Shown piece after piece: positions 2,445 to 34,767 of a stretch of 64,000 bases of DNA. The notes below the pieces were generated by a model, which saw only the letters and a list, made by a program, of their open reading frames with translations, searched no databases and was not told the DNA's origin. The DNA is taken from the IMG/VR virus record IMGVR_UViG_3300044614_002195, positions 96,001 through 160,000 of that record; one strand, given 5' to 3'. Source of the stretch: a virus. A program made the translations under genes and the position numbers. Every line of letters starts with the position of its first letter. Positions within the stretch are counted from its first letter, which is position 1.

Positions 2445-2612
2445 ATGAGTAGAACTATTAGAAAATATCAGGTCAGAGATAAACGAAATCGGTATAAGCA
2501 GATCGAACGTCAAAAGCTGGAAGACCAGTATTATACAGATGTAGCAAAATCGCATGACAGAAAAATCCGTAAAAAGGGTCTTCGAGAAGAAGAATCCGAC
2601 GAACAGCAGTGA
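2445..2612 (+). CDS. Small basic hypothetical protein
   Basis: ATG at 2445 (MSRTIRK...), 55 aa, just downstream of the putative promoter. Confidence 0.5.
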   Translation: MSRTIRKYQVRDKRNRYKQIERQKLEDQYYTDVAKSHDRKIRKKGLREEESDEQQ

Positions 2613-3144
2613 TATAAGTAATATAAAAAGAGGGCGAGGAAGACCAAAGGGCGCCAAAAATAAACCAAAAGTTGAATCTGTTCCGACTGTAGCTAAAAAA
2701 AGAGGTCGGCCTAAGGGTTCAAAGAACAAAGTTAAAACAAGCAGTTATCAGGAAATTCAAGTAAAAGGTAAGTACCTTAACCCTATAGCTTCGGCTAAAC
2801 CTGAAATAGCTCGCATTCCTAAACCTCCAGGTAAAAGAGGAAGACCTAGGAAAAACGATAACCCACTAGCTGCGTCTTCAGTTAAAAAAGAAGAGCAGAA
2901 GGCTGAACTACCTACAACATCAGGTAATCATCCCTTATTTCCAGCCGTAGCCTGGCTTGAAAAAAATATGCATCACAACGAGCTGCAATACTATCGCAGT
3001 CGTGCGCACAAAATAGGCTCAACCATACAGGTAGCCATAGCTTCAGACATCCTGGGTTTCTTTAATGTTCAGGATGCGGAGATATGCAAACAAATCAAGA
3101 AAAACACATTCATCGCAAGCGTAACAAAACATGAACTGCATTAA
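2554..3144 (+). CDS. AT-hook DNA-binding protein
   Basis: Three AT-hooks: KRGRGRPKG, KKRGRPKG, GKRGRPRK; small helical C-terminal domain. Start uncertain. Confidence 0.75.
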   Translation: MTEKSVKRVFEKKNPTNSSDISNIKRGRGRPKGAKNKPKVESVPTVAKKRGRPKGSKNKVKTSSYQEIQVKGKYLNPIASAKPEIARIPKPPGKRGRPRKNDNPLAASSVKKEEQKAELPTTSGNHPLFPAVAWLEKNMHHNELQYYRSRAHKIGSTIQVAIASDILGFFNVQDAEICKQIKKNTFIASVTKHELH

Positions 3145-4720
3145 TAAAATCAAAAACTATCAAAGAGCCGGCTATTCTGGTGTATTCGTACTAACTCACG
3201 AAGAAGCCAGATTCATGCTCGAGCTTACAACTCTAAGCAACTTAGAGTATAATGCTCTCAACATTGTCGAATGGGACACACAGAAAGGCCTTCTATTCCG
3301 ATCAGGAAAAACTAAAATAGGGTTTCAAGAGGACACTACTAAAAACACTAGCGATCTACTGGAATATATTCAAAATTATTCGCAGACCAATACAATCTTT
3401 GTGTTGAAAGATTTTCATCTGCATTTTGATAAAATTCTCAATATTCGTCTATTGAGGAACGCTTGGAATAACCTAAAGCGAATGGGTAATATGATTGTTT
3501 TTGTAGGGCATAAATACGCAGTACCCGGCGAGCTCCAAAAGGAGGTACAGCTACTAGACTATGACCTTCCAAATATAGAAGCACTTACCGAGAGGTTGAT
3601 GTATATCAAAAGCTCGATTGATAAAGGCAGAGAAGAGGCAGGTAAGGCGCCTACTGAGCTTGATAACAGTATTATAGAGGCAGCAACGGAAGCTGCGAGA
3701 GGCATGACCAGCCTTGAGGCTGAGAACGCTTTTGCTTCCGCCTGGACAGAAACCGGAAAGTTTAATAGCGTTTTTGTTGAAGCAGTATTTAAAGAAAAAA
3801 TTGCGCAGCTTAAAAAGAACGGATTGTTGACCTACATGGAGCCAAACATCAGCTTTGATAATGTTGGCGGCATGCAAGGCCTAAAAACCTGGCTAACTAC
3901 TAGGAAAAAAGCGTACGCTAAAGAAGCTAGAGCATACAATCTACCTTTACCTAAGGGTATGCTATTGGCCAGTGTGCCAGGTACTGGGAAAAGTCTGATT
4001 TGTAAGGCAATTGCTAAAGAGTTTGACTGCCCGCTGTTTGCTCTGGATATTGGTAGCGTATTTGATTCGCTTGTTGGTAGCAGCGAAAAGAATATGCGAG
4101 AGATCATTAAAACTGTTGAAAGCGTGGGTAAGTGTGTGATCTTGATTGACGAGATCGAGAAAAGCTTGAGTAACAGCGCAGTCAGTGGCTCTGGAGACAG
4201 TGGCGTAGGCAGCCGTATCTTCGGTACTTTCCTGAGCTGGCTAAATGACCGCACAAATCCTGCGTTCATTGTTGCCACCACGAACAACCACACACTGTTG
4301 CCTGCAGCATTGATCCGCAAGGGTCGTTTTGATCAACTGTTCTGGGTAGACCTACCTACAGCAGAAGAGCGTAAAGAAATCTTCACTGTCGTGATTAATA
4401 AGTATAATAGAGATCCAAAAAACTTCTCTATTAAAACTTTAGTAAACGGCTCTGAAAACTTTACAGGCGCCGAGATTGAAGAAGTGTTTAAAGACGCGCT
4501 ATACAAAGCGTTTGATGCTGGTGAAGAAATTAATGATAGCCATGTTATGGAGGTACTGTCGGAGTTTATTCCGTTCGCAGTGTCACATGAAGAAGATCTA
4601 AAGACGATGCGCAAGCAAGCGCAAGGTAAGCTAGTTATGGTAAACAGTAAAGGTGATCCTATTGCTGACGTTCAGAAAAACATGAGAAAGCTGAGTATTG
4701 CAATCGGGGTAGAAGAGTAA
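3131..4720 (+). CDS. Ycf46-like AAA+ ATPase (degenerate N-terminal AAA plus active AAA)
   Basis: 529 aa. FVLKDFH in the N-domain, FDNVGG, SVPGTGKS Walker A, ILIDEIEK Walker B, ATTN..LPAALIRKGRFD, FTGAEIE. Confidence 0.88.
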   Translation: MNCINKIKNYQRAGYSGVFVLTHEEARFMLELTTLSNLEYNALNIVEWDTQKGLLFRSGKTKIGFQEDTTKNTSDLLEYIQNYSQTNTIFVLKDFHLHFDKILNIRLLRNAWNNLKRMGNMIVFVGHKYAVPGELQKEVQLLDYDLPNIEALTERLMYIKSSIDKGREEAGKAPTELDNSIIEAATEAARGMTSLEAENAFASAWTETGKFNSVFVEAVFKEKIAQLKKNGLLTYMEPNISFDNVGGMQGLKTWLTTRKKAYAKEARAYNLPLPKGMLLASVPGTGKSLICKAIAKEFDCPLFALDIGSVFDSLVGSSEKNMREIIKTVESVGKCVILIDEIEKSLSNSAVSGSGDSGVGSRIFGTFLSWLNDRTNPAFIVATTNNHTLLPAALIRKGRFDQLFWVDLPTAEERKEIFTVVINKYNRDPKNFSIKTLVNGSENFTGAEIEEVFKDALYKAFDAGEEINDSHVMEVLSEFIPFAVSHEEDLKTMRKQAQGKLVMVNSKGDPIADVQKNMRKLSIAIGVEE

Positions 4721-4751
4721 ACAATAAACAAACAATTAAACAATAAATTAT

Positions 4752-5753
4752 ATGACAAACGAATATCAAGTAACTGAAACATTGCAGAAATATTATGACA
4801 AAGTTTTCCAAGACGGAAAGCTTGTAAATATTCACATCGGTATGTGGGGAATGAGTTATAACCTCACAGAAGAGGACATTAAGCTCGATAACAAGCTACC
4901 AGATACTATCAAGCTGGGTAAGAAAATGCTTATCAAGCCTGCAGTATACAACAAGTTCAAGAACATTGAGCAAAAGATCCGTAAATATCTTTACGTTAAT
5001 TCTTTTGATTTCCCTCTAGTAAGTCAGGCGCATTTTGTACCTAAGGCAAAGTATCTAGAGGTTTACACGACGCTAGATAAGATGCGCGTTGAATTCATGC
5101 AGATGGTTGACGAGTTCGTAGAAAAATACGAAGACTATAAGAAGGAGGCTATCGCATATTACCAAGAGCATAAGGATACGGTTAGTGTAGACGATTTAGA
5201 AAAATACTATCCAGCTGCAGCTAATGTACGAAGCAAGTTTTACTTCGACATTGTATCTTTTGAAATTGCACTACCTGCTGAGTTTAAAGAACTCAATTTG
5301 CAGGATGAGATCAATCGAGAAATTGCTGGAAAAGAGGCTAAGTCAAAGGCGCTTGAGAACTATAAAACTGAGTATGGTAAGCAGATCAGTACGCACATGG
5401 CAAAGATCAACGACTTTGTGGGTGAAGTCACAGCCACATTGCGTTCAAAGATCGTTGAGCATTGCTCTAAAGCCCTGGATAAAATAAACAAGAAAGAAGT
5501 TGTGTCTGAGTCTAGCATCAAGACATTGCTTAAGCATATTCAAGAGTTCAGAGATATGAACTTTGTTGACGACAAGGCCGTTGAGGCTGAGTTGGCTAAA
5601 GTTGAGCGTTTACTTGTAGGTAACCACGACTTTGATAAAGACAAGGACGCCATGGGTCTACTTCAGCAGCATCTGAACACTCTTGTAAAAGAGGCTGAGA
5701 GTCTGTCTGACGTAGCAAACGTTTCAGGTGAATATTTCAGGAAACTTGCATAA
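4752..5753 (+). CDS. DUF3150-like protein
   Basis: 333 aa helical protein; LVNIHIGMW...KLGKK pattern and context next to the Ycf46-like AAA. Confidence 0.55.
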   Translation: MTNEYQVTETLQKYYDKVFQDGKLVNIHIGMWGMSYNLTEEDIKLDNKLPDTIKLGKKMLIKPAVYNKFKNIEQKIRKYLYVNSFDFPLVSQAHFVPKAKYLEVYTTLDKMRVEFMQMVDEFVEKYEDYKKEAIAYYQEHKDTVSVDDLEKYYPAAANVRSKFYFDIVSFEIALPAEFKELNLQDEINREIAGKEAKSKALENYKTEYGKQISTHMAKINDFVGEVTATLRSKIVEHCSKALDKINKKEVVSESSIKTLLKHIQEFRDMNFVDDKAVEAELAKVERLLVGNHDFDKDKDAMGLLQQHLNTLVKEAESLSDVANVSGEYFRKLA

Positions 5754-5756
5754 CCG

Positions 5757-6059
5757 ATGTATCCAGGAGACGATCAAAACGAAACAACTGACCCTCCATA
5801 TTTTGACACCCTAACTGTCAAGTTTAGGGGAGACAATTATGAGGTTGCATTACCATATTGCGAAGTAGCCAATGGCGAGATCACCGAGATAAATGACAAG
5901 GCTGTTAAGATAGCTTATTTAAAAGATGGAGTGAAAGATACTCTGGTAATGTCACATCCTGATTTTGTCACAGTTATTGAAAAAGCATTCGATATCAAAG
6001 AAATCACAAAGCTGAGCATACAGCGCGCCAACAGCTACGACACAATAAAAATATTATGA
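5757..6059 (+). CDS. Hypothetical protein
   Basis: 100 aa, tightly packed in the operon. Confidence 0.6.
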   Translation: MYPGDDQNETTDPPYFDTLTVKFRGDNYEVALPYCEVANGEITEINDKAVKIAYLKDGVKDTLVMSHPDFVTVIEKAFDIKEITKLSIQRANSYDTIKIL

Positions 6060-6445
6060 GTCATTCAGTAGACATCAAAACACAGTTCAAAAATACCAAT
6101 AATCTACTTGCGCAGTTTAAAGCGCTTGGGTGGAGGATTGAAATGAATACGAAGTGTACAACATATCCTAGCGATCCTCGCCGTGGAGAGATACACAAGT
6201 ATGTAGCAAAAAACCCCAGTTCTGTAGGATACGATGTGGGAGTTAACCTAGATAATGAGGGTAACGCCTACTTTGTGTGCGACTTCTATGATCGTAGCAT
6301 CGAGCAGAGCTTGGGTAAAAACCTGCAGAAAGTCAAACAGGGCTATGCACTCAGCGAAATCAAAAAGCGCTTGCGTGAAGAAGACCTGGAATATAAGGTA
6401 AGCGAACTACCTACAGGCGAGCTAATCGTGGTTGCTGAAAAATAA
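6056..6445 (+). CDS. DUF1257 (Ycf35-like) protein
   Basis: MSH...IKTQFKN...L..LG, YDVG, CDFY, QGYA pattern typical of DUF1257. Confidence 0.8.
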   Translation: MSHSVDIKTQFKNTNNLLAQFKALGWRIEMNTKCTTYPSDPRRGEIHKYVAKNPSSVGYDVGVNLDNEGNAYFVCDFYDRSIEQSLGKNLQKVKQGYALSEIKKRLREEDLEYKVSELPTGELIVVAEK

Positions 6446-6446
6446 T

Positions 6447-6647
6447 ATGTCTAAAAAAATAGTATTTAAAATTACTAAAGATGGCGATGTTGTAGTTGAT
6501 AAAGTTGAAGGCTACGGATCGTCATGTCTTGAGGCTACCAAGTTCATAGAAAAAGCCTTGGGTAAAGCAGATGAGTCTACTCGCAGAATGACTGAGGAAT
6601 ACGAAGAACCTATAAAGGTAGATAATTCTGAGCGTATACGCAATTGA
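6447..6647 (+). CDS. DUF2997 protein
   Basis: MSKKIVFKITKDGDVVVDKVEGYGSSCLEATKFIEKALG...TEEY; follows DUF1257. Confidence 0.8.
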   Translation: MSKKIVFKITKDGDVVVDKVEGYGSSCLEATKFIEKALGKADESTRRMTEEYEEPIKVDNSERIRN

Positions 6648-25472: not shown

Positions 25473-28172
25473 ATGAGCGATAAAAAAGAAAAAATAGAGG
25501 TACAGCCTACCTATAAAGAAAACAGTCAGCCTGAACTAATGATTATTTTTTCTCACCCAGGGAAAGATGATCTAGAAGAAAGGGCGTTCGGTAAAAAAGG
25601 TATGGCTGAAGAGGTATTGTCTGCGCTAAATGCTGCAGATATACCTCTTGATAAAGTGTACTTTACAGGAATGGTGAGGTATGGAATTGGTAATAAGCCT
25701 AAGCCGTCAGCAGAGGATATAGAATATTGGTCAGCCAAGCTGGACGAAGAAATTGCTGCAGTTAAACCTAAACTCATCATGCCTTTGGGTGCTGAAGTAT
25801 TCAAACGCATCATGCGTACAAATATTAAAATGGGTGATTATGTAGGCGAGATCACTGATACACCCTACGGTAAAGTTCTGGCAAACTATGCTCCTGGGAT
25901 GATCGTAGTGATGGATCCTACTAAGCGTCCTGAGTTCAGGGAGATATTCGTATTGGCTAAAAAGGCGTTAGATAACAATTTAAACTATAGAGAGTTTAAG
26001 TATGTGATCATAGACGATCCTAAAGACAATATCGAGATATTGAACAACTACATTGCCCGAGGTGAGTTTAAAATAGGCTATGACGCTGAATGGTACGGAG
26101 ATAAGTTTACAGACGACGAGGTAATGTATGAGTTTCAATATAGCTGCCAAAGAGATTTTGCAGTGATCTTGAATATCTCTAAAGACGGCTCCACAGAAAA
26201 CCGAGAGCTTCTAGATACGATGAAGATCATGCTAGAGCACCCTAAAGCCCAGCGTATGGGCTGGAACATAAGGGCTGACGATTTACGCTTGAGGCATAGA
26301 GGATTTAATTTACCTGACGAAACGCTAGCGTTTGACGGTATGAAGGCTGTGGCTTTCTTTGACTCTAGGCTCAGTAAGGGGCTAGAAACGGGGATTAAGC
26401 ACTTTACCGATTATGCTCCATACTATACAGCATTAAACAGAAAGGTTAAGGAGCATAAGCTTGGTAAAGCAGAAATGGCTAAGCTTAAGTTTTTGGAGCC
26501 TGACATATACCATCACTATTGTGCTGGTGACGCTGTGAGTCATCGTGAGGCCTGTCTGAGGATGATGGAGATTTTTCCGGAAAAACTCAAAGATCTATAC
26601 TACAACGTATATTTGCCATTAACCCATTACTTTACAGATATGGAGTTAACAGGTATTGCTGTTGATAAGCAGGTGCTAGAAGATCTTACTGATAAGTATC
26701 TAGAAAAATATAACGCACTCAAAGATGAGCTTGTTGTCTTTCTAAAAGATGAGTTTGGTGTAGAAGAATTTAATCCTAATTCTGCTCCACAGAAAAAATC
26801 TTTGCTTTTTGAGACACTACGCGTAACTCCAGCCTACTATACAAAGTCAGGCAAATCTCCAAAGTCTAAGGCGTGGTACGATAAACAGAAGCCACAGACT
26901 CAAAAAATGTACGAGCCCAGTACAAACGGCAAGAGTCTATCTACAATAAAATTCCAGCTTGAAGAGGCGCTAGATAAATACCCAAACGACCCTGATATCA
27001 TGAGGGTGCATAAAGCAATTACTCTACTGCTTAGCGTAAGTCGTGTAGGCGTATTTGCTACAAAGTTTTTATCTAAAAAAGGTGTAGTGCTCGACCCTGA
27101 GTCAGAGCTAGATGAAGATATTGATGAACCCTTGAAGCAAAGCTATTGGGCAGCTATCTGTAATGATGGTCGCGTTCATGCTAGCTTCTTTGAATGCTTA
27201 AAGAACTTCAGAGCTAGTAGTAGTCCTAATGTTCAGAATCCCGCTTCAAAGGTTTTAGCGTATATTCCAGATATATTCGTTCCAGGGTATAGCAAACTGA
27301 GCAGCGAAGAACAGCAATCGTGCAGCAAAATGCTACCTAAAAACATTAGGAATATTTTCTGTACAGGCAACCCTGACTATTATTGGACAGAGCTTGACGT
27401 AGCTGGGGCAGATTTGGCTATTATGGCCTTTTTGTCTAGAGACGAAGACTTTATTCACGATATCAGAGCAGGCAATTTCCATCAAACAAAGATGCGAGAA
27501 TACTTCAATGACGCTACCCTCACAAAGAAAGATGTGAGTAAGTATGTGATCGCCAAGAGTATTACTTTTCGAGTCTCGTACACAGCCGGGCTAAAATTCG
27601 CAGCAATGCCCATTCAAGCTGATATTTATGCTGAGAATGGCTTGCATGTAGGATTACATACTTTAGAGTATGCGCTTGAGACTTGGGAGAGATATCGCAA
27701 GTACATGGCCTACAGAGACAGATGTACTGACGAAGTTAAAAACCATAAGCGTATCACGAACGCCAGAGGGTTGGTTTTAAACTACGAAGAAACAGATAAT
27801 TTCGGTATTCTTGCCGGTTGGATGAATGAAAGCTTGGCTTTTCCCGTGGCCAGCGAGCTTGCATGGTTTATGTGGGAGTGTTCTGTAAATCTAAAAAACC
27901 TTCTAAAGAAAGAAGGCTTATGGATGAAGTACATATACCCAGTAAATACTGTGCATGATGCAGGCTATTGGGCTGTGCACAAAGATTTGGTAAATGATAA
28001 TTATATCCAGGAAGTTCTCAAATATGTATTCTGCCACCATACAAAGCTAGCCACCGGAGATAATGTAGGTTGCGAGCTGGCCATCATGGATAGATGGAAA
28101 GGTAAAGAAAAAGTATTTGAGAGAGAAACAGCCTGGAACTTTGAAAAGAACACATGGGAATGGAAAAAGTAA
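25473..28172 (+). CDS. polA: Family A DNA polymerase with UDG-like N-domain and 3'-5' exonuclease
   Basis: N-terminus with family-4 UDG-like layout (HPG, KPKLIMPLG); exonuclease YDAE / NIRAD / YCAGD; polymerase motif A LDVAGADL, motif B KSITFRVSY, motif C VHDA. Confidence 0.88.
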   Translation: MSDKKEKIEVQPTYKENSQPELMIIFSHPGKDDLEERAFGKKGMAEEVLSALNAADIPLDKVYFTGMVRYGIGNKPKPSAEDIEYWSAKLDEEIAAVKPKLIMPLGAEVFKRIMRTNIKMGDYVGEITDTPYGKVLANYAPGMIVVMDPTKRPEFREIFVLAKKALDNNLNYREFKYVIIDDPKDNIEILNNYIARGEFKIGYDAEWYGDKFTDDEVMYEFQYSCQRDFAVILNISKDGSTENRELLDTMKIMLEHPKAQRMGWNIRADDLRLRHRGFNLPDETLAFDGMKAVAFFDSRLSKGLETGIKHFTDYAPYYTALNRKVKEHKLGKAEMAKLKFLEPDIYHHYCAGDAVSHREACLRMMEIFPEKLKDLYYNVYLPLTHYFTDMELTGIAVDKQVLEDLTDKYLEKYNALKDELVVFLKDEFGVEEFNPNSAPQKKSLLFETLRVTPAYYTKSGKSPKSKAWYDKQKPQTQKMYEPSTNGKSLSTIKFQLEEALDKYPNDPDIMRVHKAITLLLSVSRVGVFATKFLSKKGVVLDPESELDEDIDEPLKQSYWAAICNDGRVHASFFECLKNFRASSSPNVQNPASKVLAYIPDIFVPGYSKLSSEEQQSCSKMLPKNIRNIFCTGNPDYYWTELDVAGADLAIMAFLSRDEDFIHDIRAGNFHQTKMREYFNDATLTKKDVSKYVIAKSITFRVSYTAGLKFAAMPIQADIYAENGLHVGLHTLEYALETWERYRKYMAYRDRCTDEVKNHKRITNARGLVLNYEETDNFGILAGWMNESLAFPVASELAWFMWECSVNLKNLLKKEGLWMKYIYPVNTVHDAGYWAVHKDLVNDNYIQEVLKYVFCHHTKLATGDNVGCELAIMDRWKGKEKVFERETAWNFEKNTWEWKK

Positions 28173-28732
28173 AATATATAAAACTAGGTAGCAATGGTCA
28201 TATAGCTATAGTAGATGCTGAAGACTACGATGATCTTGTTAAACATAAGTGGGGAGTTAAAAAAGGAAAATCCACTGCATACGCAGTTAGACATAAAAAG
28301 AAAAACGAAGTACTAATAGCGGCTAAAAAGGTCCGTATGCATAGAGAGATATTATCAAAAATATCTGAGATACCAGAAAAAATGGTTATAGATCATATAA
28401 ACCATAACGGTCTAGACAATAGAAAAGCTAACTTACGAGTATGCACTGTTTCTGAAAATGTCAGGAACAGTAGAACGTTTAAAAATAAAAAAGTTAAATA
28501 CAAAGGTGTTTTTATGGATCTAAGCAGCGCTAAAAACCCGTACAGGGCCTGTATCAGAGTTGACGGCAAACGTATAAGTCTGGGACAATATCCTACACCA
28601 GAAAAAGCAGCTAGAGCTTATAATGCCGCAGCTGTGAAATACTTTGGAGCTTTTGCCTACTTAAACGATGTGCCTGATACAGACGAAGAAGACTCAAAAG
28701 AGTTGACGCAATCTGAGCTTGAGCTGTCATGA
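28154..28732 (+). CDS. HNH-AP2 free-standing homing endonuclease
   Basis: MHREI, IDHINHNGLDNRKANLR, then AP2 domain YKGV...YRACI...LGQY.T.EKAARAYN.AA.KYFG.FA.LN. Confidence 0.92.
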   Translation: MGMEKVKYIKLGSNGHIAIVDAEDYDDLVKHKWGVKKGKSTAYAVRHKKKNEVLIAAKKVRMHREILSKISEIPEKMVIDHINHNGLDNRKANLRVCTVSENVRNSRTFKNKKVKYKGVFMDLSSAKNPYRACIRVDGKRISLGQYPTPEKAARAYNAAAVKYFGAFAYLNDVPDTDEEDSKELTQSELELS

Positions 28733-29451
28733 CTAGGTTTAAATTGACCAACAACAGCAAAGTCAGATTTAAAGCTAATCACTATAATACGTTTAGCCTG
28801 ACGCAAGGAGATCCTAAAGAAGGAGGCACATGCCCTGGTATGACAGAAGGACCAGGAGGATGTGCCGAGAAATGCTACGATAAAAATCTAAGAAAGTTAT
28901 ATAAAGCATACGCTAGTGTTGAAGATCACAATACTTCACTAGTAGTAGATAAATCTCCTGTAGATATGTATGAGACTATCAAGAATTCTGTAATGTACTG
29001 GTTGTTAAGTGGAGGCAATAGTACTCCCTACTTCCGCATACATACAGGAGGAGATTTTTATAACGAGGAGTATGCGAAAGCATGGGTCAAGGTAATGCAA
29101 GAGTACCCAGGAATAAATTTCTGGGCATACACCAGATCATTGTTCTGTGTTCCTATTCTTGCAGAAGTTAAAAATTTAACCTTGTATCTAAGCTGCGATC
29201 CAGTTAACAAAGACAAAGTACTGAAAGTATATTCAGGCTATAGAAATTATCCCAACGTAGCAATAGCTTGGATGGGTAATGAAATTCCTGAAAATTTATT
29301 TTCAGACAAAGCTTTTTTAGTTTGCCCTGAAGTTACGGGTAAGCTAAAAAATACAAAGACGGAAGGCGCTTGCTCTAGATGTAGAGCTTGCGTTGACCGT
29401 AAACTAAAAAACGGAAAAACAAGACACATACAGTTTCCTATCCACAGGTAA
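28729..29451 (+). CDS. Gp88-like Cys-rich protein (possible Fe-S/radical-SAM-like)
   Basis: TCPG...GCAEKCY, FRIHTGGDF, WAYTRS, LYLSCD, CPE...CSRCRAC. Confidence 0.7.
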   Translation: MTRFKLTNNSKVRFKANHYNTFSLTQGDPKEGGTCPGMTEGPGGCAEKCYDKNLRKLYKAYASVEDHNTSLVVDKSPVDMYETIKNSVMYWLLSGGNSTPYFRIHTGGDFYNEEYAKAWVKVMQEYPGINFWAYTRSLFCVPILAEVKNLTLYLSCDPVNKDKVLKVYSGYRNYPNVAIAWMGNEIPENLFSDKAFLVCPEVTGKLKNTKTEGACSRCRACVDRKLKNGKTRHIQFPIHR

Positions 29452-29790: not shown

Positions 29791-29869
29791 TTTCCCTCCA
29801 AATGTTCCCCCCAGAACATTTGGTCGCAGAAAAACAACAACACACAACTCAGTAAACACTAATATTATT

Positions 29870-30130
29870 ATGAATACATACAAAATCGAAATCGCAGACA
29901 AGACCGGACACACAACTGTAGCTGACCTGACGCTAGATCAGGCAGTAGACGGAATTCTGGAGCACGCCGAGAACAATGCCCGCTGGGTATTCATTAACGG
30001 CGAAAAGTTTGAGTTCCAAGGAACCAACTATCGTGCAGAAGAGAACCTCCAAAAGCTTCGCGGCAAACTCGAGGCAGTGCAGGATCCTGCTGTGCTCCTG
30101 ACCGGTATTCTGATCGGCGGCCACAAGTAA
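29870..30130 (+). CDS. Ubiquitin-like (beta-grasp) protein with C-terminal GG-HK
   Basis: 86 aa from ATG 29870; beta-beta-helix-beta pattern ending VLLTGILIGGHK; clustered with JAB and ThiF genes. Confidence 0.72.
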   Translation: MNTYKIEIADKTGHTTVADLTLDQAVDGILEHAENNARWVFINGEKFEFQGTNYRAEENLQKLRGKLEAVQDPAVLLTGILIGGHK

Positions 30131-30152
30131 ATCAGACAGGTCAATCAAAATC

Positions 30153-30190
30153 AAACCCCCTGGTGAGCAATCATCAGGGGGTTTCTTTTT
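30153..30190 (+). terminator. Intrinsic terminator after the Ubl gene
   Basis: AAACCCCCTGGTGA-GCAA-TCATCAGGGGGTTT followed by CTTTTT. Confidence 0.8.
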
Positions 30191-30234
30191 ACCCTTCGGG
30201 GGAGACACATACCACTTATAAAATAATAAATACT

Positions 30235-32334
30235 ATGGACCTACCTTATAAATCTTTTTTAAAAATAGCCAAACAAACACAAACATTAAGCAAGTACGTC
30301 AAGACAATGGACGTAAGCATCGATAAATCTACTGAATATGTGGATAATCAATATGTACCTACAGTAAAATTAGCTTACACAAGTCTACACTTCGATACGG
30401 TGGCAGACATGCATGCCTACTCCAAGTATCTACCTATACCCACACATAAGCTTAAAATAGGTGAAGACATCAGATACCAAGATCTTCAAGCAAACATAGC
30501 TCAACGTGGCGGATGGGACAATACGCACGTTATGCAATTTTTAAGACAGGATAGCTCTAAGGGCGAGCCTTCCGTAAAGCTTATCCCTGAAGAAACAGCG
30601 TATGCTTTTCGCCCTAATATAATCAAGCTCGCTCCTATCGAGTATACAGAAGGAGACTATACATACAGAATCCTTACAAACCAGAGTAGTAAAAACTATA
30701 CCGCTCGTATTCGAGTTATAGCTAGAAACGATGAGCCTATTTACGATTACCTGGATAAAGGGTTTTTCGTAATGACTGTTAATGAAAAATCTGACGAATT
30801 AACTAAGCCTTCGTTTGTTGTGTCAGATAGCTATGATGTGAATACTGCACACATTTTTATGATGTGTAAGCTACAGCATAACCTAATCAGTATGCTGAAA
30901 GACGAATGCTTTGTGAGTAAGTATGACGCAGAAATGCTTAAACTTAAAATGCTCAGAAAGCTAACTCCTGAAGCTAAAGCGTCATACTTGAAGCATTCGA
31001 AGGCGATTGATGAAGACTATCGTAAGAATACTACACTGGTAGTAGTTGGGAAATTGCTTAGCGGCGAAATTAAAAAAACGACTATTAGAGAAGTAGAGTT
31101 TTCAGCTACAACAGCAAAGTATGAGAATACTGAAATTGAAGCTGAGGATCTCATGACTGTACTGTCAAGAGACCTTGATTTTAATAGCGAGTTTGACATC
31201 TATGCTGTGGCTCAACTGTATGCCAATTATGCTGAAAAGTGCTTGGACGCTAAAGGCTGGAGTTACACAGAAATTGATGACATCAATGCTGGTGCAAATG
31301 AGCTCAAAAAGAAGAGTCTGCCTACGTTTAAAATAAACGGAATCAGTATATCTGCGGCAGTTTCTTATACAGGACAAAGGTACTTAAACGACACCAGGAT
31401 TAATCAGGACGAGGTGGCAAAGGCCATATACCGCGCTTCCTGCTATAGGTCAGCTGAAGACTATAATTTGTTCCTAAAGAGTATCAGCCGCATGAGTATC
31501 AAGAGACATGATATTATTGCAAATGGCCTGCAGGTAAAGATTCACGCAGGTATGACCATAGAAGAATTCAGGGAATCTACTCCTGGTGTAAATGCTCCTG
31601 CCCTTAAATTTGTGATTGATAAGCAAGATAAGCGTATCAAGCTGTATATTGATGAAAATCGACAAGTGCCTGTAGATATCAGCGGGCTGATCAAGAAGGT
31701 ACAAACGATCAACTCAAAAACAAACAATAGATCGTTTTACGATAGGTCAGACAATGCGTACAACTATATCAACAGAGATCATATTTGGGCAGCTGCGGAG
31801 CTTACAAAAGCCCTGATTGAGTTCACTACGTTCCCTGTAAAGTTTAAGAATCTGGAAGATGGTACGGTAATAGAAAAAGACCAGGTACTGATATCTAAAG
31901 ATGACGTTGCTAAACTGTTGAAAGTAGTTGATGAGCAGAACAAAGCTAAAATCGAAAGATCTAAGCAGTTCTTGAGTACTGCAGTAAAGCTTACAGGAGC
32001 TGAAGAAATTGAGTTCTTGGGACAAAAGGCTTATAGGGTAAAGGGTAGCCTTAGAGAATATGCTATAGTCATCAGTAACGCCAAGGTCTACGATTATGAG
32101 ACAAAACAATATCGCTGCATTGTTAATGACAGGCACTATAAAGGTGCAGGTTATGACGACGTGGCCAGCAGACTATTGGCTCTCAAGAACGACTCGGTAA
32201 TGCAAGATCATATCGGCACATTACGAGGGCAGGCTCAGCCAGGAGCTGAAAACGCTCACAATGATTACAGACCTGAACGTGACGTGCAGGACGTAATTAG
32301 CCCGATTGTAGATAAAGCATTCGAGAAAGTATAA
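30235..32334 (+). CDS. Large hypothetical protein with candidate E2-like C-terminal domain
   Basis: Likely start at 30235 (699 aa). C-terminal beta-meander, then AKVYDYETKQYRCIV (Cys628), then helix DDVASRLLALKND. Confidence 0.5.
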   Translation: MDLPYKSFLKIAKQTQTLSKYVKTMDVSIDKSTEYVDNQYVPTVKLAYTSLHFDTVADMHAYSKYLPIPTHKLKIGEDIRYQDLQANIAQRGGWDNTHVMQFLRQDSSKGEPSVKLIPEETAYAFRPNIIKLAPIEYTEGDYTYRILTNQSSKNYTARIRVIARNDEPIYDYLDKGFFVMTVNEKSDELTKPSFVVSDSYDVNTAHIFMMCKLQHNLISMLKDECFVSKYDAEMLKLKMLRKLTPEAKASYLKHSKAIDEDYRKNTTLVVVGKLLSGEIKKTTIREVEFSATTAKYENTEIEAEDLMTVLSRDLDFNSEFDIYAVAQLYANYAEKCLDAKGWSYTEIDDINAGANELKKKSLPTFKINGISISAAVSYTGQRYLNDTRINQDEVAKAIYRASCYRSAEDYNLFLKSISRMSIKRHDIIANGLQVKIHAGMTIEEFRESTPGVNAPALKFVIDKQDKRIKLYIDENRQVPVDISGLIKKVQTINSKTNNRSFYDRSDNAYNYINRDHIWAAAELTKALIEFTTFPVKFKNLEDGTVIEKDQVLISKDDVAKLLKVVDEQNKAKIERSKQFLSTAVKLTGAEEIEFLGQKAYRVKGSLREYAIVISNAKVYDYETKQYRCIVNDRHYKGAGYDDVASRLLALKNDSVMQDHIGTLRGQAQPGAENAHNDYRPERDVQDVISPIVDKAFEKV

Positions 32335-32336
32335 TT

Positions 32337-32771
32337 ATGTATATATTCAGATACGGTATAGAATCGTTCCTTAAAGCCATGATTGGTGCTTCTCTAGAGT
32401 GTACAAGCACCAAAGAGGAGGAAGGCGGTATTATCATGGAAAAAGATGCAGTGTATGAGTTCGTAAGAGTTAAAAATGTTTACGAAGGCACAGACAGAGC
32501 CTCAGGATTATATGAGACAGATCAAGAAGAGTTGTCTCAATTGATATTCTCCAGAGTCTGTAAAGGCTGGAAAATGCATGCCAGCTTTCATACGCATCCA
32601 TCGTTCAGTCCTACTCCTAGCAGCCTTGATTTGGATAAACTATTTCAAGGCTTTAGATACAACATCATATGGTCACCAACGCACAGAACATTCTCCTATT
32701 CAGCATGGATGGGTGAAGACTCGTATGTGACATACCTACCTATTAATACAATCGAGAAATTAATTAAATAA
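32337..32771 (+). CDS. JAB/MPN+ metallo-isopeptidase
   Basis: EEEGG catalytic Glu and exact HxH-x7-S-x2-D motif (HTHPSFSPTPSSLD). Confidence 0.9.
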   Translation: MYIFRYGIESFLKAMIGASLECTSTKEEEGGIIMEKDAVYEFVRVKNVYEGTDRASGLYETDQEELSQLIFSRVCKGWKMHASFHTHPSFSPTPSSLDLDKLFQGFRYNIIWSPTHRTFSYSAWMGEDSYVTYLPINTIEKLIK

Positions 32772-32772
32772 T

Positions 32773-33369
32773 ATGAAACTAGACAAAATTGCTATTGCAG
32801 GTGCAGGTGGAATCGGTTCTAACCTGTTGAGTATACTGTTTGACTACGGCTACAACAGAAAGCAGTTCAGCTATATGGATGTCGAGGTTGACATCTATGA
32901 CGATGATACTGTAGATATTAAAAACCTACTGCATCAAAACTTTAAAATTGATGACGTAGGCAAGCATAAAGTTAAAGTGCTAGAAGAAAAATACATTGCG
33001 CAAGGCATTGCTCGTCGGATGACTGAGGATGACTTCAGTAAATACAACGTGATCTTTAGCTGCGTGGACAGTATGTCGTTCAGGAAGAGCCTGTATGAGT
33101 ATGGCTGGAAAGTAGGAAACGATGAGTTATTCTGGGTTGACGGCAGGTGCACTAGCAGGCAAGGTGCATTGTTTACATCCGACATGCTTAAACCTGCGCT
33201 AGAGCCGTTTATTAATGACTCGCAAGAAGAGGGCGGTTGCCTTCTAGCCTACGAGAAAGAGCAGAACATCAGTCATACTCTACCTACAGTGGTAGCAGCT
33301 ATGATGGTTCAAGCATTCCTTAACAAGCTAAGGGGTCAGCAAACATTCAAGTCTGTATTCATGGTGTAA
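32773..33369 (+). CDS. ThiF/E1-like adenylyltransferase
   Basis: IAGAGGIGS, YDDDTVDIKNLLHQNF, GKHKV, SCVDS..FRK, WVDGR; no Zn CxxC pairs; extra Cys in EGGCL. Confidence 0.9.
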   Translation: MKLDKIAIAGAGGIGSNLLSILFDYGYNRKQFSYMDVEVDIYDDDTVDIKNLLHQNFKIDDVGKHKVKVLEEKYIAQGIARRMTEDDFSKYNVIFSCVDSMSFRKSLYEYGWKVGNDELFWVDGRCTSRQGALFTSDMLKPALEPFINDSQEEGGCLLAYEKEQNISHTLPTVVAAMMVQAFLNKLRGQQTFKSVFMV

Positions 33370-33650
33370 TGGCGGACTTAAATGACAAACAGCAGCAGAC
33401 AATAACAGCTGAAAAATATCTTCTAGGTATCCTTGACAAGATCTGCCTAACCGTAGATCTTCGTAGGGATGAGTGGGAGTTAAACAAAGATTTGCTTATA
33501 GCCATAAGTAAAAGCTATAAGACAAAAAAGAAAAAAGATACCGCATTGTTCTATAGCTATGATCAATGCTTCAATATGCTAAAAAAACTAAATATAAAGA
33601 TATCGTCAAAGTTCAAATGGTTCACAAATCTGGAAGAACACGTAAAGTAA
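33369..33650 (+). CDS. Hypothetical protein coupled to E1
   Basis: 93 aa, TAATG overlap. Confidence 0.6.
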   Translation: MADLNDKQQQTITAEKYLLGILDKICLTVDLRRDEWELNKDLLIAISKSYKTKKKKDTALFYSYDQCFNMLKKLNIKISSKFKWFTNLEEHVK

Positions 33651-33696: not shown

Positions 33697-34767
33697 ATGG
33701 CAATCATCAAACCATCACTAAAATTCGAAGGCTCAGAACTCAATCTTACGGTATCTGCCGCTCCATACATTCAAGAATCTGTCCGCAGGGCAGTGTTCAA
33801 CAAAACAAACAACCAAGAGGGCGCTTACCTGTATTTCTTGCCTGCTTACAAGGCAGACTCATCAGGTAACGGTATCTGGTACAAGAAGATCGCAGTTCGT
33901 GACAACTTTGGCACTAACTTCAAAGAAAAATACTACGTAGCTAATAGGGCTAACGACCCAGCCGAATACTTCGCAAACAACTTCAAGATCTTGTATCCTG
34001 AGGAAGCAAAGGTTACAGACACTGAAGTTAACGGTAGGAAGTTCAAGAAGTATCCAAACTTTGGTCGCGTTACTGAACGTGTTGTATACAACGTGGCTTT
34101 TGCTCAAAGCTTGTCTACAGGCGCGCATGTGCTAGATCTGCCGCTCAGGAATGGCGCAGACAACCTGATGAACTGGCTTGAGGGTAAGGATATGACTGGC
34201 AACAGGCGTAATCCTATCAATGATCCTGATCGTTGTGTACCTGTGTTTGTTAAGCTCAAGGAAAACAGCGCCAACCCTTGGATGATTCAGATTGAAAATA
34301 ATTCTCCAGTACAGTTGCCAGAGCAGCTTGCTGACAGTGATTATCTTTACAATCTAGATGAAATCTTCATAAATAAGCCTAAAGAAGAAATCATTGCAAA
34401 GCTGCGTGAGATGTATTCTGCGGATGTATTTGAGGATTGCATGAACGGTTACCCTGGGTTAACCAAGTCTAACACAGCAAGCTTCAATGTTACAGCCAAG
34501 CAGGTTACGCAGCCTGCTGTAGAATTACCTCCAGCTAGACCTCAAATGGAGATAGCTAAGGCTGTAATTAGTAGCGCTCCTGTCGCAGTGCCGGCAATAG
34601 AAATACCTAGAGCAGCGTTGACTGCCCCAGCGGTTGCCGTTAATGTTCCTATAGTGGCAAACATCTCTGATGCTCCTGCCGCTGTAGATATATCTTCCCT
34701 GCCACCAAATCCGATGGCAGGCAAGATTAGCCGCGCAGATGCGCTTAAGTTCATCAACCAAGACTAA
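33697..34767 (+). CDS. Probable single-stranded DNA-binding protein (gp32-like)
   Basis: YFLP, aromatic-rich beta core, YNV motif, Ala/Pro low-complexity tail; immediately upstream of recA. Confidence 0.55.
   Translation: MAIIKPSLKFEGSELNLTVSAAPYIQESVRRAVFNKTNNQEGAYLYFLPAYKADSSGNGIWYKKIAVRDNFGTNFKEKYYVANRANDPAEYFANNFKILYPEEAKVTDTEVNGRKFKKYPNFGRVTERVVYNVAFAQSLSTGAHVLDLPLRNGADNLMNWLEGKDMTGNRRNPINDPDRCVPVFVKLKENSANPWMIQIENNSPVQLPEQLADSDYLYNLDEIFINKPKEEIIAKLREMYSADVFEDCMNGYPGLTKSNTASFNVTAKQVTQPAVELPPARPQMEIAKAVISSAPVAVPAIEIPRAALTAPAVAVNVPIVANISDAPAAVDISSLPPNPMAGKISRADALKFINQD

Follow-up and report, generated by a model that had tools for sequence, protein, structure and literature searches.

A candidate ubiquitin-like conjugation cassette in the replication module of a complete 198-kb virus genome

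Conjugation of ubiquitin-like proteins (Ubls) in prokaryotes is now prominent as a weapon of the host against phages, as in the Bil, Bub, and cyclic oligonucleotide-based antiphage signaling system (CBASS) Cap2/Cap3 pathways, and a kit encoded on the virus side would reverse this picture. That question is raised by a locus in IMG/VR record IMGVR_UViG_3300044614_002195, the genome of a freshwater phage, 198,289 bp long and complete according to CheckV. Bases 96001 to 160000 of this record (64,000 nucleotides, here called the window) contain five consecutive plus-strand genes that encode a Ubl precursor, a 699-residue protein of an unannotated family (the large protein), a metallopeptidase of the JAB type, a minimal E1 of the ThiF type, and a 93-residue protein (Table 1). 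Does this phage run Ubl conjugation of its own? We are confident that the Ubl-E1-JAB triad is real and conserved. For the complete system, we lean toward phage-run conjugation of the Ubl to proteins, with the domain that contains Cys628 of the large protein as the carrier. If this is true, phages would carry out tagging of their own, much as viruses of eukaryotes make use of ubiquitin, and its most likely purpose would be to drive or shield replication.

In the proposed mechanism, the Ubl would be made from a stand-alone, probably abundant transcript ending at its own terminator. The JAMM peptidase would remove the two residues that follow the C-terminal Gly-Gly (GG), or the far longer C-terminal fusions found in relatives, and probably also strips the Ubl from conjugates. 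The minimal E1 would adenylate the exposed C-terminal Gly and probably load the Ubl onto Cys156. The next acceptor would be Cys628, near the C terminus of the large protein, while the N-terminal part of this protein (∼560 residues) would choose the target. We infer each of these chemical steps, the E2-like role, and the transfer of protein rather than sulfur from the sequences and predicted models described below.

The Ubl, JAB, and E1 genes

The 86-residue protein adopts a beta-grasp in its predicted model, and its structural neighbors are Ubls only. A word-index search returned 54 homologs, all metagenomic. G83 and G84 are invariant in 31 aligned homologs, as is the preceding L-T-G-x-L, while the number of residues after the GG in this alignment ranges from none (P0112, P0125) through one or two (most homologs) to more than 40. 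Among more distant Ubls, the GG is followed by 95 residues in locus L010 and by 197 in L016; the Ubl of L013 ends in AGG-CRR, and those of L014, L023, and L028 stop exactly at GG. In the fusions of L010 (positions 5375 to 5923) and L016 (9351 to 10169), the domains behind the GG contain no Cys and match no family, and the tail of the L010 Ubl ends in a Lys/Ala-rich basic stretch.

The JAB protein scored 30.7 bits against Pfam Prok-JAB (PF14464; cut-off of 25 bits, E = 3e-7). Its motif, E27...H85-x-H87-x7-S95-x2-D98, is exact, and E27, H85, H87, S95, and D98 are invariant in five diverse homologs down to 21% identity. The best match among PDB sequences was Pyrococcus JAMM1 (5lda, E = 0.01), and the best NCBIfam match was the haloarchaeal desampylase model, at 20 bits and far below the cut-off of that model. 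The sole PHROG match was a tail-protein family; the presence of an E1 and the location of the genes in a replication module led us to reject a role in tail assembly of the TAPI/TAPK type. The presence of JAB was compared with that of a Ubl tail in nine loci, a small sample in which some contigs end close to the locus. JAB is present in all five loci with a tailed Ubl (the window, L009, L010, L013, and L016), and three of the four tail-less loci (L014/L015, L023, and L028) contain no JAMM motif in the available sequence. The fourth, L020/L021, keeps JAB although its Ubl already ends at GG, so removal of the terminal HK cannot be the only job of JAB. This distribution fits a peptidase required for processing that also serves another function, of which deconjugation would be the simplest. 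The JAB protein of L010 (8070 to 8903, 277 residues) differs in that the C-terminal Cys domain of the large protein recurs, Cys included, within its N-terminal ∼100 residues (hmmsearch, 1e-9).

By its alignments, E1 is the best-conserved gene of the cassette. It scored 62.6 bits against Pfam ThiF (PF00899; cut-off of 28.1 bits, E = 4e-17) and has relatives in 313 clusters at E ≤ 1e-5, the best 120 of which are 62 to 100% identical and almost all 197 to 198 residues long. The protein carries GAGGIGS, has cysteines only at positions 97, 126, and 156 (EGGC156LL), and lacks any CxxC zinc pair, of which the MoeB/ThiF type has two. In an alignment that takes in the 31 to 35% identical enzymes of L014 and L016, the residues G10/G12/G13, D43, D45, N51, Q55, K66, D99, R104, D123, R125, and C156 are invariant. 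The PDB match list of the E1 profile is headed by UBA3 (3e-6), followed by SAE2, a ThiF-type protein, MccB, Cap2, Uba1, and ThiF, and the ribose Asp, the Lys, and the Mg-binding Asp (D43, K66, and D99) align with UBA3, as do the GxGxxG glycines. Peptide adenylation in the manner of MccB was rejected because the substrate is a folded beta-grasp ending in GG. The best NCBIfam match was PRTRC_ThiF (TIGR03736; 47 bits against a cut-off of 144.75, E = 1.9e-12), a score so far under the cut-off that E1 is related to this family and not a member of it.

These results bear out the observations, and part of the interpretation, of an initial annotation made from the sequence of the window alone. It had described five plus-strand genes, which lie where it placed them, and had named a Ubl, a JAB protein with its catalytic Glu and HxH-x7-S-x2-D, and an E1 with GxGxxG and a free Cys156 but no zinc CxxC pairs. 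The small protein is a beta-grasp in its predicted model with a GG that is conserved in homologs, so that neither of the conditions which that annotation had set for refuting the tag holds. The catalytic motif of JAB is intact and conserved, and the E1 motifs are present and conserved as well. Host defense or ribosomal proteins, which the annotation had suggested as targets, would be candidates.

The layout of the genes is informative. The hairpin downstream of the Ubl gene has a 14-bp stem with 7 GC pairs, is followed by a T-run, and has a folding energy of −28 kcal/mol (z = −5.4 versus shuffled sequences). The Ubl gene is closed by a terminator of its own and is therefore taken to be a separate cistron. 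The last four genes are spaced by 2, 1, and −1 nucleotides and are therefore taken to be translationally coupled. A Ubl cistron followed by coupled enzyme genes would yield more tag than enzymes. For the large protein, the ATG at 30235 is favored over a GTG at 30163 (723 residues) because the GTG falls inside the terminator hairpin. At 29799 to 29826, ∼45 nucleotides upstream of the Ubl start, there is a perfect inverted repeat of 10 bp (CCAAATGTTC...GAACATTTGG); this repeat and the terminator at 30153 to 30184 place hairpins on both sides of the Ubl gene.

The 93-residue protein matched nothing in any family library searched (Pfam, PHROGs, PADLOC, and NCBIfam). In L009, L020, and L010, the gene after E1 encodes a homolog (22 to 41% identity), and W36, N39, Y64, and a K-L-x-x-K stretch are invariant.

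The large protein and its cysteine domain

A word search with the large protein returned relatives in 74 clusters, none of them annotated; many lie on contigs 150 to 215 kb long. A profile search of 1.84 billion representatives enlarged this family, which has no annotation, to 446 representative clusters at E ≤ 1e-3. No Pfam domain scored above cut-off in the family representatives. The AlphaFold2 model is of good confidence and has several domains (predicted local distance difference test score of 83.6, predicted template modeling score of 0.52). A Foldseek search with this model against the PDB returned nothing at E ≤ 1e-3, the top rows being unrelated large complexes, and a search of BFVD returned three unnamed viral proteins of 416 to 452 residues (E = 1e-6 to 1e-4). 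In a feature search of the ESM Atlas, the last 145 residues of the protein brought up nothing usable.

There are five cysteines in the protein, at positions 211, 225, 336, 403, and 628, and the last of these is in the C-terminal domain. An alignment of 40 family members, down to 16% identity, contains nine invariant columns, among them Cys628, L650, D653, T662, and L663; Cys403 is nearly invariant, and H634, downstream of Cys628, is conserved solely in the close clade. In the model, the Cys628 domain consists of a long helix (563 to 587), four strands, the Cys loop, and a further helix (640 to 651), and this predicted order of elements recalls the UBC/UEV fold. Five of the top 50 VIA rows aligned solely within residues 568 to 668, and all five are UEV/E2 folds, which is weak evidence for the fold. 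The Cys domain is also duplicated onto the JAB protein in L010, a point in favor of Ubl conjugation through this domain.

In the subclade whose large proteins have 778 to 792 residues, a conserved ORF (open reading frame) of 121 to 126 residues with the pattern GLW[IL]S...S.L..IG.L is in every case the gene directly upstream of the large protein (L012, 2141 to 2506; L014, 6640 to 7020; L016, 6617 to 6982). This ORF matched no family.

The Cys domain shows traces of similarity to DUF7737 (PF24879). Scores were 18.9 to 22.1 bits against a cut-off of 27, and 16 of the 40 family members gave sub-threshold matches, which probably reflects distant homology and not membership. A search for DUF7737 found it in none of five bacterial genomes and once in 81 Bacteroidota genomes, in locus L081 (genome G052, contig 23), where a true DUF7737 domain ends a 1717-residue open frame. 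By eye, L081 aligns with the phage family over KGxLxxY..., the strand at the Cys position, and the L-L-A-K-D-N helix.

Several observations weigh against Ubl conjugation through the Cys628 domain. The large protein matched no E2 family in Pfam or NCBIfam, the 40-member profile gave chance matches only and no E2 when it was searched against PDB sequences up to E = 10, and the Cys domain has no HPN motif. L081 has a Ser (YLSILP) where the phage family has its invariant Cys (YRCIVN). On the side of E1, the Arg of the NLxRQ motif is absent, the sequence being NLLHQ here and NLGYQ and NILYQ in L014 and L016; in the UBA3 alignment an Arg stands opposite this His. E1 also starts 4 residues before the Rossmann strand and so, by eye, lacks the N-terminal segment that provides the trans-Arg in MoeB/ThiF. 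Cys156 can be placed at the position of MoeB C187 and ThiF C184 by eye only, since the PDB alignments stop at about residue 106 of the profile, and a conserved Cys at this position is equally expected in an E1 for sulfur transfer. Finally, conjugation without an E2 is established for archaeal SAMP with UbaA and for Thermus TtuB, so an E2 is not required. The initial annotation had called the large protein E2-like; the invariant Cys and the predicted alpha-beta4-loop(Cys)-alpha topology speak for this label, the lack of an E2 match in Pfam, NCBIfam, and PDB sequences speaks against it, and we retain it as tentative.

The precedent of SAMP and TtuB/TtuC leads to an account in which E1 alone conjugates the Ubl and the 699-residue protein is the main substrate, a scaffold, or a regulator whose cysteines are otherwise used. 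The missing E2 family match and the weak fold evidence agree with this account, as does the fact that the nearest relatives of JAB in NCBIfam and the PDB are the archaeal desampylase and JAMM1. However, the motif around Cys628 is invariant in very distant relatives, which fits a catalytic module better than a substrate, and fusion of the same domain to JAB in L010 is also at odds with a substrate role. We consider conjugation by E1 alone unlikely.

The same E1 and JAB genes could instead serve a sulfur carrier of the ThiS, MoaD, CysO, or QbsE type, in which JAB would unmask the GG, E1 would adenylate it, and a Ubl thiocarboxylate would feed a phage-specific product such as a modified nucleotide, a tRNA base, or a cofactor, with the large protein as the sulfur user. 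A Ubl, an E1, and a JAB protein are the layout of several bacterial sulfur assimilation clusters (Iyer et al. 2006, PMC1779556), E1 matches ThiF models in both Pfam and NCBIfam, and C156 lies by eye at the conserved Cys of ThiF/MoeB. Yet the complete 198-kb genome, which has one ThiF and one JAB gene, encodes no rhodanese (PF00581) and no PP-loop ATPase (PF01171, ATP_bind_3), although host enzymes could substitute for these. The large protein has no recognized sulfur insertion fold or motif, and the PDB matches of the E1 profile are led by the conjugating enzymes UBA3 and SAE2 and not by MoeB or ThiF. Moreover, the Ubl-X fusions of 95 to 200 residues recall the Ubl-E2 precursor BubAB (PMC11601596), although fusions of ThiS/MoaD are reported by Iyer et al. 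too. A sulfur carrier is quite improbable in our judgment, and protein conjugation with the Cys628 domain as the carrier is the reading carried forward here.

Gene linkage and genomic setting

As judged from gene order, linkage is the strongest evidence that the cassette genes work together. A Ubl, a Cys-domain protein, and E1, with or without JAB, are found together in at least three different phage genome backgrounds, across several lineages that are unrelated, and shorter forms are found in contigs of metagenome-assembled genomes (MAGs) and in Poseidoniales. Recurrence in related large phages, which the initial annotation had proposed as a check, was observed. In L009 (47% identity, 189.6-kb contig), the order from PolA to RecA is identical to that of the window. 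L010 has DnaB, PolA, GP88, a Ubl fusion, the large protein, JAB, E1, the small ORF, a 339-residue ORF, RecA, and ligase. L016, from a different kind of phage, has the order large protein, Ubl fusion, 66-residue ORF, JAB, and E1, with a PolB exonuclease, RecU, ribonucleotide reductase, and a sigma factor nearby, and in L014 a ribonucleotide reductase gene is followed by those for the large protein, a Ubl that stops at GG, and E1. The cassette is far beyond chance. Its gene set and order recur at 47% identity in L009, and the set recurs rearranged in far more distant phage contigs.

L023 and L028, two contigs binned into DPANN MAGs (Micrarchaeota and Nanoarchaeia), likewise carry genes for the large protein (E = 1e-53), E1, and a Ubl whose last residues are GG. 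Either viral contigs were mis-binned here, or these are viruses of DPANN hosts. No relative was confirmed when 185,579 species genomes were scanned with patterns from the large-protein alignment, and this blank result reflects the patterns used, because a later scan with the E1 alignment yielded these two MAG contigs carrying the large protein.

In the better-annotated loci, the conserved set lies in or beside genes of replication and nucleotide metabolism, which favors a role in the infection program of the phage itself over dispensable counter-defense. A purely counter-defensive cassette would mimic or strip the host Bil, Bub, or CBASS Cap2/Cap3 systems, with JAB as the deconjugating enzyme, the Ubl as a decoy, and no targets of its own. 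Ubl systems of hosts do act on components of phages or prime enzymes of the cGAS-like kind, and the PADLOC models of Cap2 and Cap3 weakly match E1 and JAB. These PADLOC matches, however, are weak and concern generic domains only, and a lone JAB would suffice for stripping, whereas here the whole set is co-inherited and strongly conserved (as in the 62 to 100% identity of the best 120 of 313 E1 clusters) and sits in a core replication module, not in a variable accessory region. We regard pure counter-defense as very improbable.

The Cys domain reaches beyond the large protein family. E1-bearing loci were searched with a regular expression and a profile, and the motif C-I-[VD]...G-D...A-L-x-N-D...T-L turned up in proteins that are shorter than the large protein and whose genes neighbor those of a related E1 and a Ubl. 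These include a 454-residue protein in L022, a Flavobacteriia MAG contig (domain E = 7e-7), a 287-residue protein in L039, where the Ubl shares an IEIADRTGHTT motif, and a 645-residue protein in L027. Contigs of Poseidoniales MAGs and single-amplified genomes encode motif proteins of 554 to 631 residues that lie next to a related E1 and a small Ubl-like ORF but on the opposite strand (hhalign, E = 1e-3; several loci have pairs of 554 to 590 residues), with two paralogs in L029, L047, and L049 to L051 and one found in L037 and L044. These proteins may be the carrier enzymes of an archaeal Ubl system. With the large protein, the partners in L022, L039, and Poseidoniales share the Cys motif and nothing else. 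A catalytic module tied to E1 and Ubl would be expected to behave in this way, and the pattern fits such a module better than a substrate.

This distribution, in archaea as well as bacteria, suggests that the Cys domain may supply the missing carrier for the whole group of cassettes. In its widest form, the proposal would be that the domain (C-I-V...G-D...A-L-x-N-D...T-L, distantly like DUF7737) is an unrecognized class of Ubl carrier of the E2 type, common to many uncultured phages, Flavobacteriia-associated contigs, and the Ubl/E1 loci of marine Poseidoniales, that large phages run an essential tagging reaction during replication, and that several "E2-less" cassettes do have a carrier. We put this forward tentatively, as a possible but doubtful extension of phage-run conjugation.

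Nearly all genes around the cassette are on the plus strand and form a replication and recombination module (Table 1). None of the catalogued phages is close. PolA has relatives below 25% identity only, and neither a megablast search with the cassette nor a tblastn search with the large protein gave a match in 50,697 phage records. Neither PHROGs nor PADLOC has a family that fits the Ubl, the large protein, or the 93-residue ORF. L009, L010, and L013 likewise have the GP88-family gene ahead of their cassettes; L014 and L016 do not. The position of the 356-residue ORF is kept in L009, L010, and L020, with a common N terminus (MAIIKPS...) and an Ala/Pro-rich C-terminal third; its product may be a single-strand-binding or recombination accessory protein.

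Table 1. Cassette genes, signals, and neighboring genes (window positions)
Feature	Position	Strand	Remarks
Family-A DNA polymerase (PolA)	25473-28172		Distant tblastn matches to phage DNA polymerases
HNH/AP2-like ORF	28154-28732		Overlaps end of polymerase gene
GP88-family protein, Cys-rich	28729-29451		PF17338, E = 6e-33
108-residue ORF			Between GP88-family gene and the five cassette genes
Ubl precursor (beta-grasp)	29870-30130	+	86 residues, end ...LLTGILIGG-HK
Intrinsic-terminator-like hairpin and U-run	30153-30184	+	Between Ubl gene and enzyme genes
Large partner protein	30235-32334	+	699 residues from ATG; unannotated, apparently phage-borne family
C-terminal Cys domain of large protein	31921-32223	+	Residues ∼563-663; Cys628 codon 32116-32118
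JAMM/MPN+ metallopeptidase (JAB)	32337-32771	+	144 residues
ThiF/E1 adenylation domain, minimal	32773-33369	+	198 residues; Cys156 codon 33238-33240
Coupled 93-residue ORF	33369-33650	+	Start overlaps E1 stop (TAATG)
356-residue ORF	33697-34767		Between cassette and RecA-like gene; no family match
RecA/UvsX-like recombinase			Downstream of 356-residue ORF

Comparison with known systems

Work on Ubl kits has to date dealt with those of cells, most of them examined as antiphage defenses. No published phage-encoded Ubl/E1 system was found in the literature covered, Hor et al. included, with subscription journals outside the coverage. Among catalogued phages, the sole matches of E1 are the ThiF genes of the Flavobacterium psychrophilum phages of the FpV4 group (29% identity). 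In FpV4 (KT876724.1), positions 2532 to 6543 contain a cluster of four genes among toprim and uracil-DNA-glycosylase genes, all annotated as hypothetical except ThiF. They encode a 289-residue protein whose ∼80 N-terminal residues are Ubl-like, end in ...VKSGG, and precede another ∼205 residues; a 420-residue protein; a 423-residue protein with an exact HxHx7Sx2D and a weak Prok-JAB match; and a 228-residue ThiF. The hhalign probability between the large-protein family profile and the two ∼420-residue FpV4 proteins was below 1%. The likeness is therefore one of layout only, as no homology is detectable between the 420-residue protein and the large protein. This cultured group nevertheless offers a laboratory system with an analogous Ubl-fusion, JAB, and ThiF cluster.

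The only phage-borne pairs of a Ub-like protein and JAB found in the literature are TAPI (Ub-like) and TAPK (JAB plus NlpC) of lambdoid and T1 tail assembly, where the Ubl carries a further domain at its C terminus and JAB is predicted to cleave behind the final Gly of the Ubl part (Iyer et al. 2006, PMC1779556). This is a processing pair of the tail module without E1 or carrier, whereas the cassette described here has an activation enzyme. The cassette resembles PRTRC, whose ThiF (TIGR03736) is encoded on plasmids and integrative and conjugative elements (operon class 6d of Iyer et al. 2006), in having a ThiF-type E1 borne by a mobile element; none of the other PRTRC protein models in NCBIfam matched any cassette gene.

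With archaeal SAMP/UbaA/HvJAMM1 and Pyrococcus JAMM1, the cassette shares a small Ubl ending in GG, a single E1 of the ThiF type, and a JAMM enzyme as the remover, but all sequence matches are far under the family cut-offs. SAMP systems double as sulfur carriers, and to our knowledge they have no dedicated large Cys-domain partner.

In gene content, the cassette is like Bil (BilABCD, ISG15-like antiphage systems of bacteria with Ubl, E2, JAB, and E1; 10.1101/2023.09.04.556158; PMC10557695). A member of Bil or type II CBASS would be expected in a host, beside defense genes, whereas the cassette is in a virus, among replication genes between PolA and a RecA-like gene, and differs from Bil further in its 699-residue carrier candidate, which has no E2 match, and its bare 198-residue E1. 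No family model of the Bil type matched any of its genes; in PADLOC, only weak, generic matches to JAB (E ≥ 1e-4) and E1-E2 (E ≥ 2e-5) models were found, and none for the Ubl or the large protein.

In Bub (bacterial ubiquitination-like) operons, the Ubl is made in one chain with the protein that follows it (BubAB), and this precursor is cut by a peptidase encoded in the operon (Ye et al. 2024, PMC11601596). The cassette likewise makes its tag as a precursor, and the distant relatives in L010, L016, and FpV4 are like Bub in their Ubl-X fusions after the GG. Unlike Bub, the cassette has an E1 and a partner that both keep invariant cysteines, and its peptidase is a separate JAMM protein. On the sequence evidence, the cassette is a member of neither Bil nor Bub.

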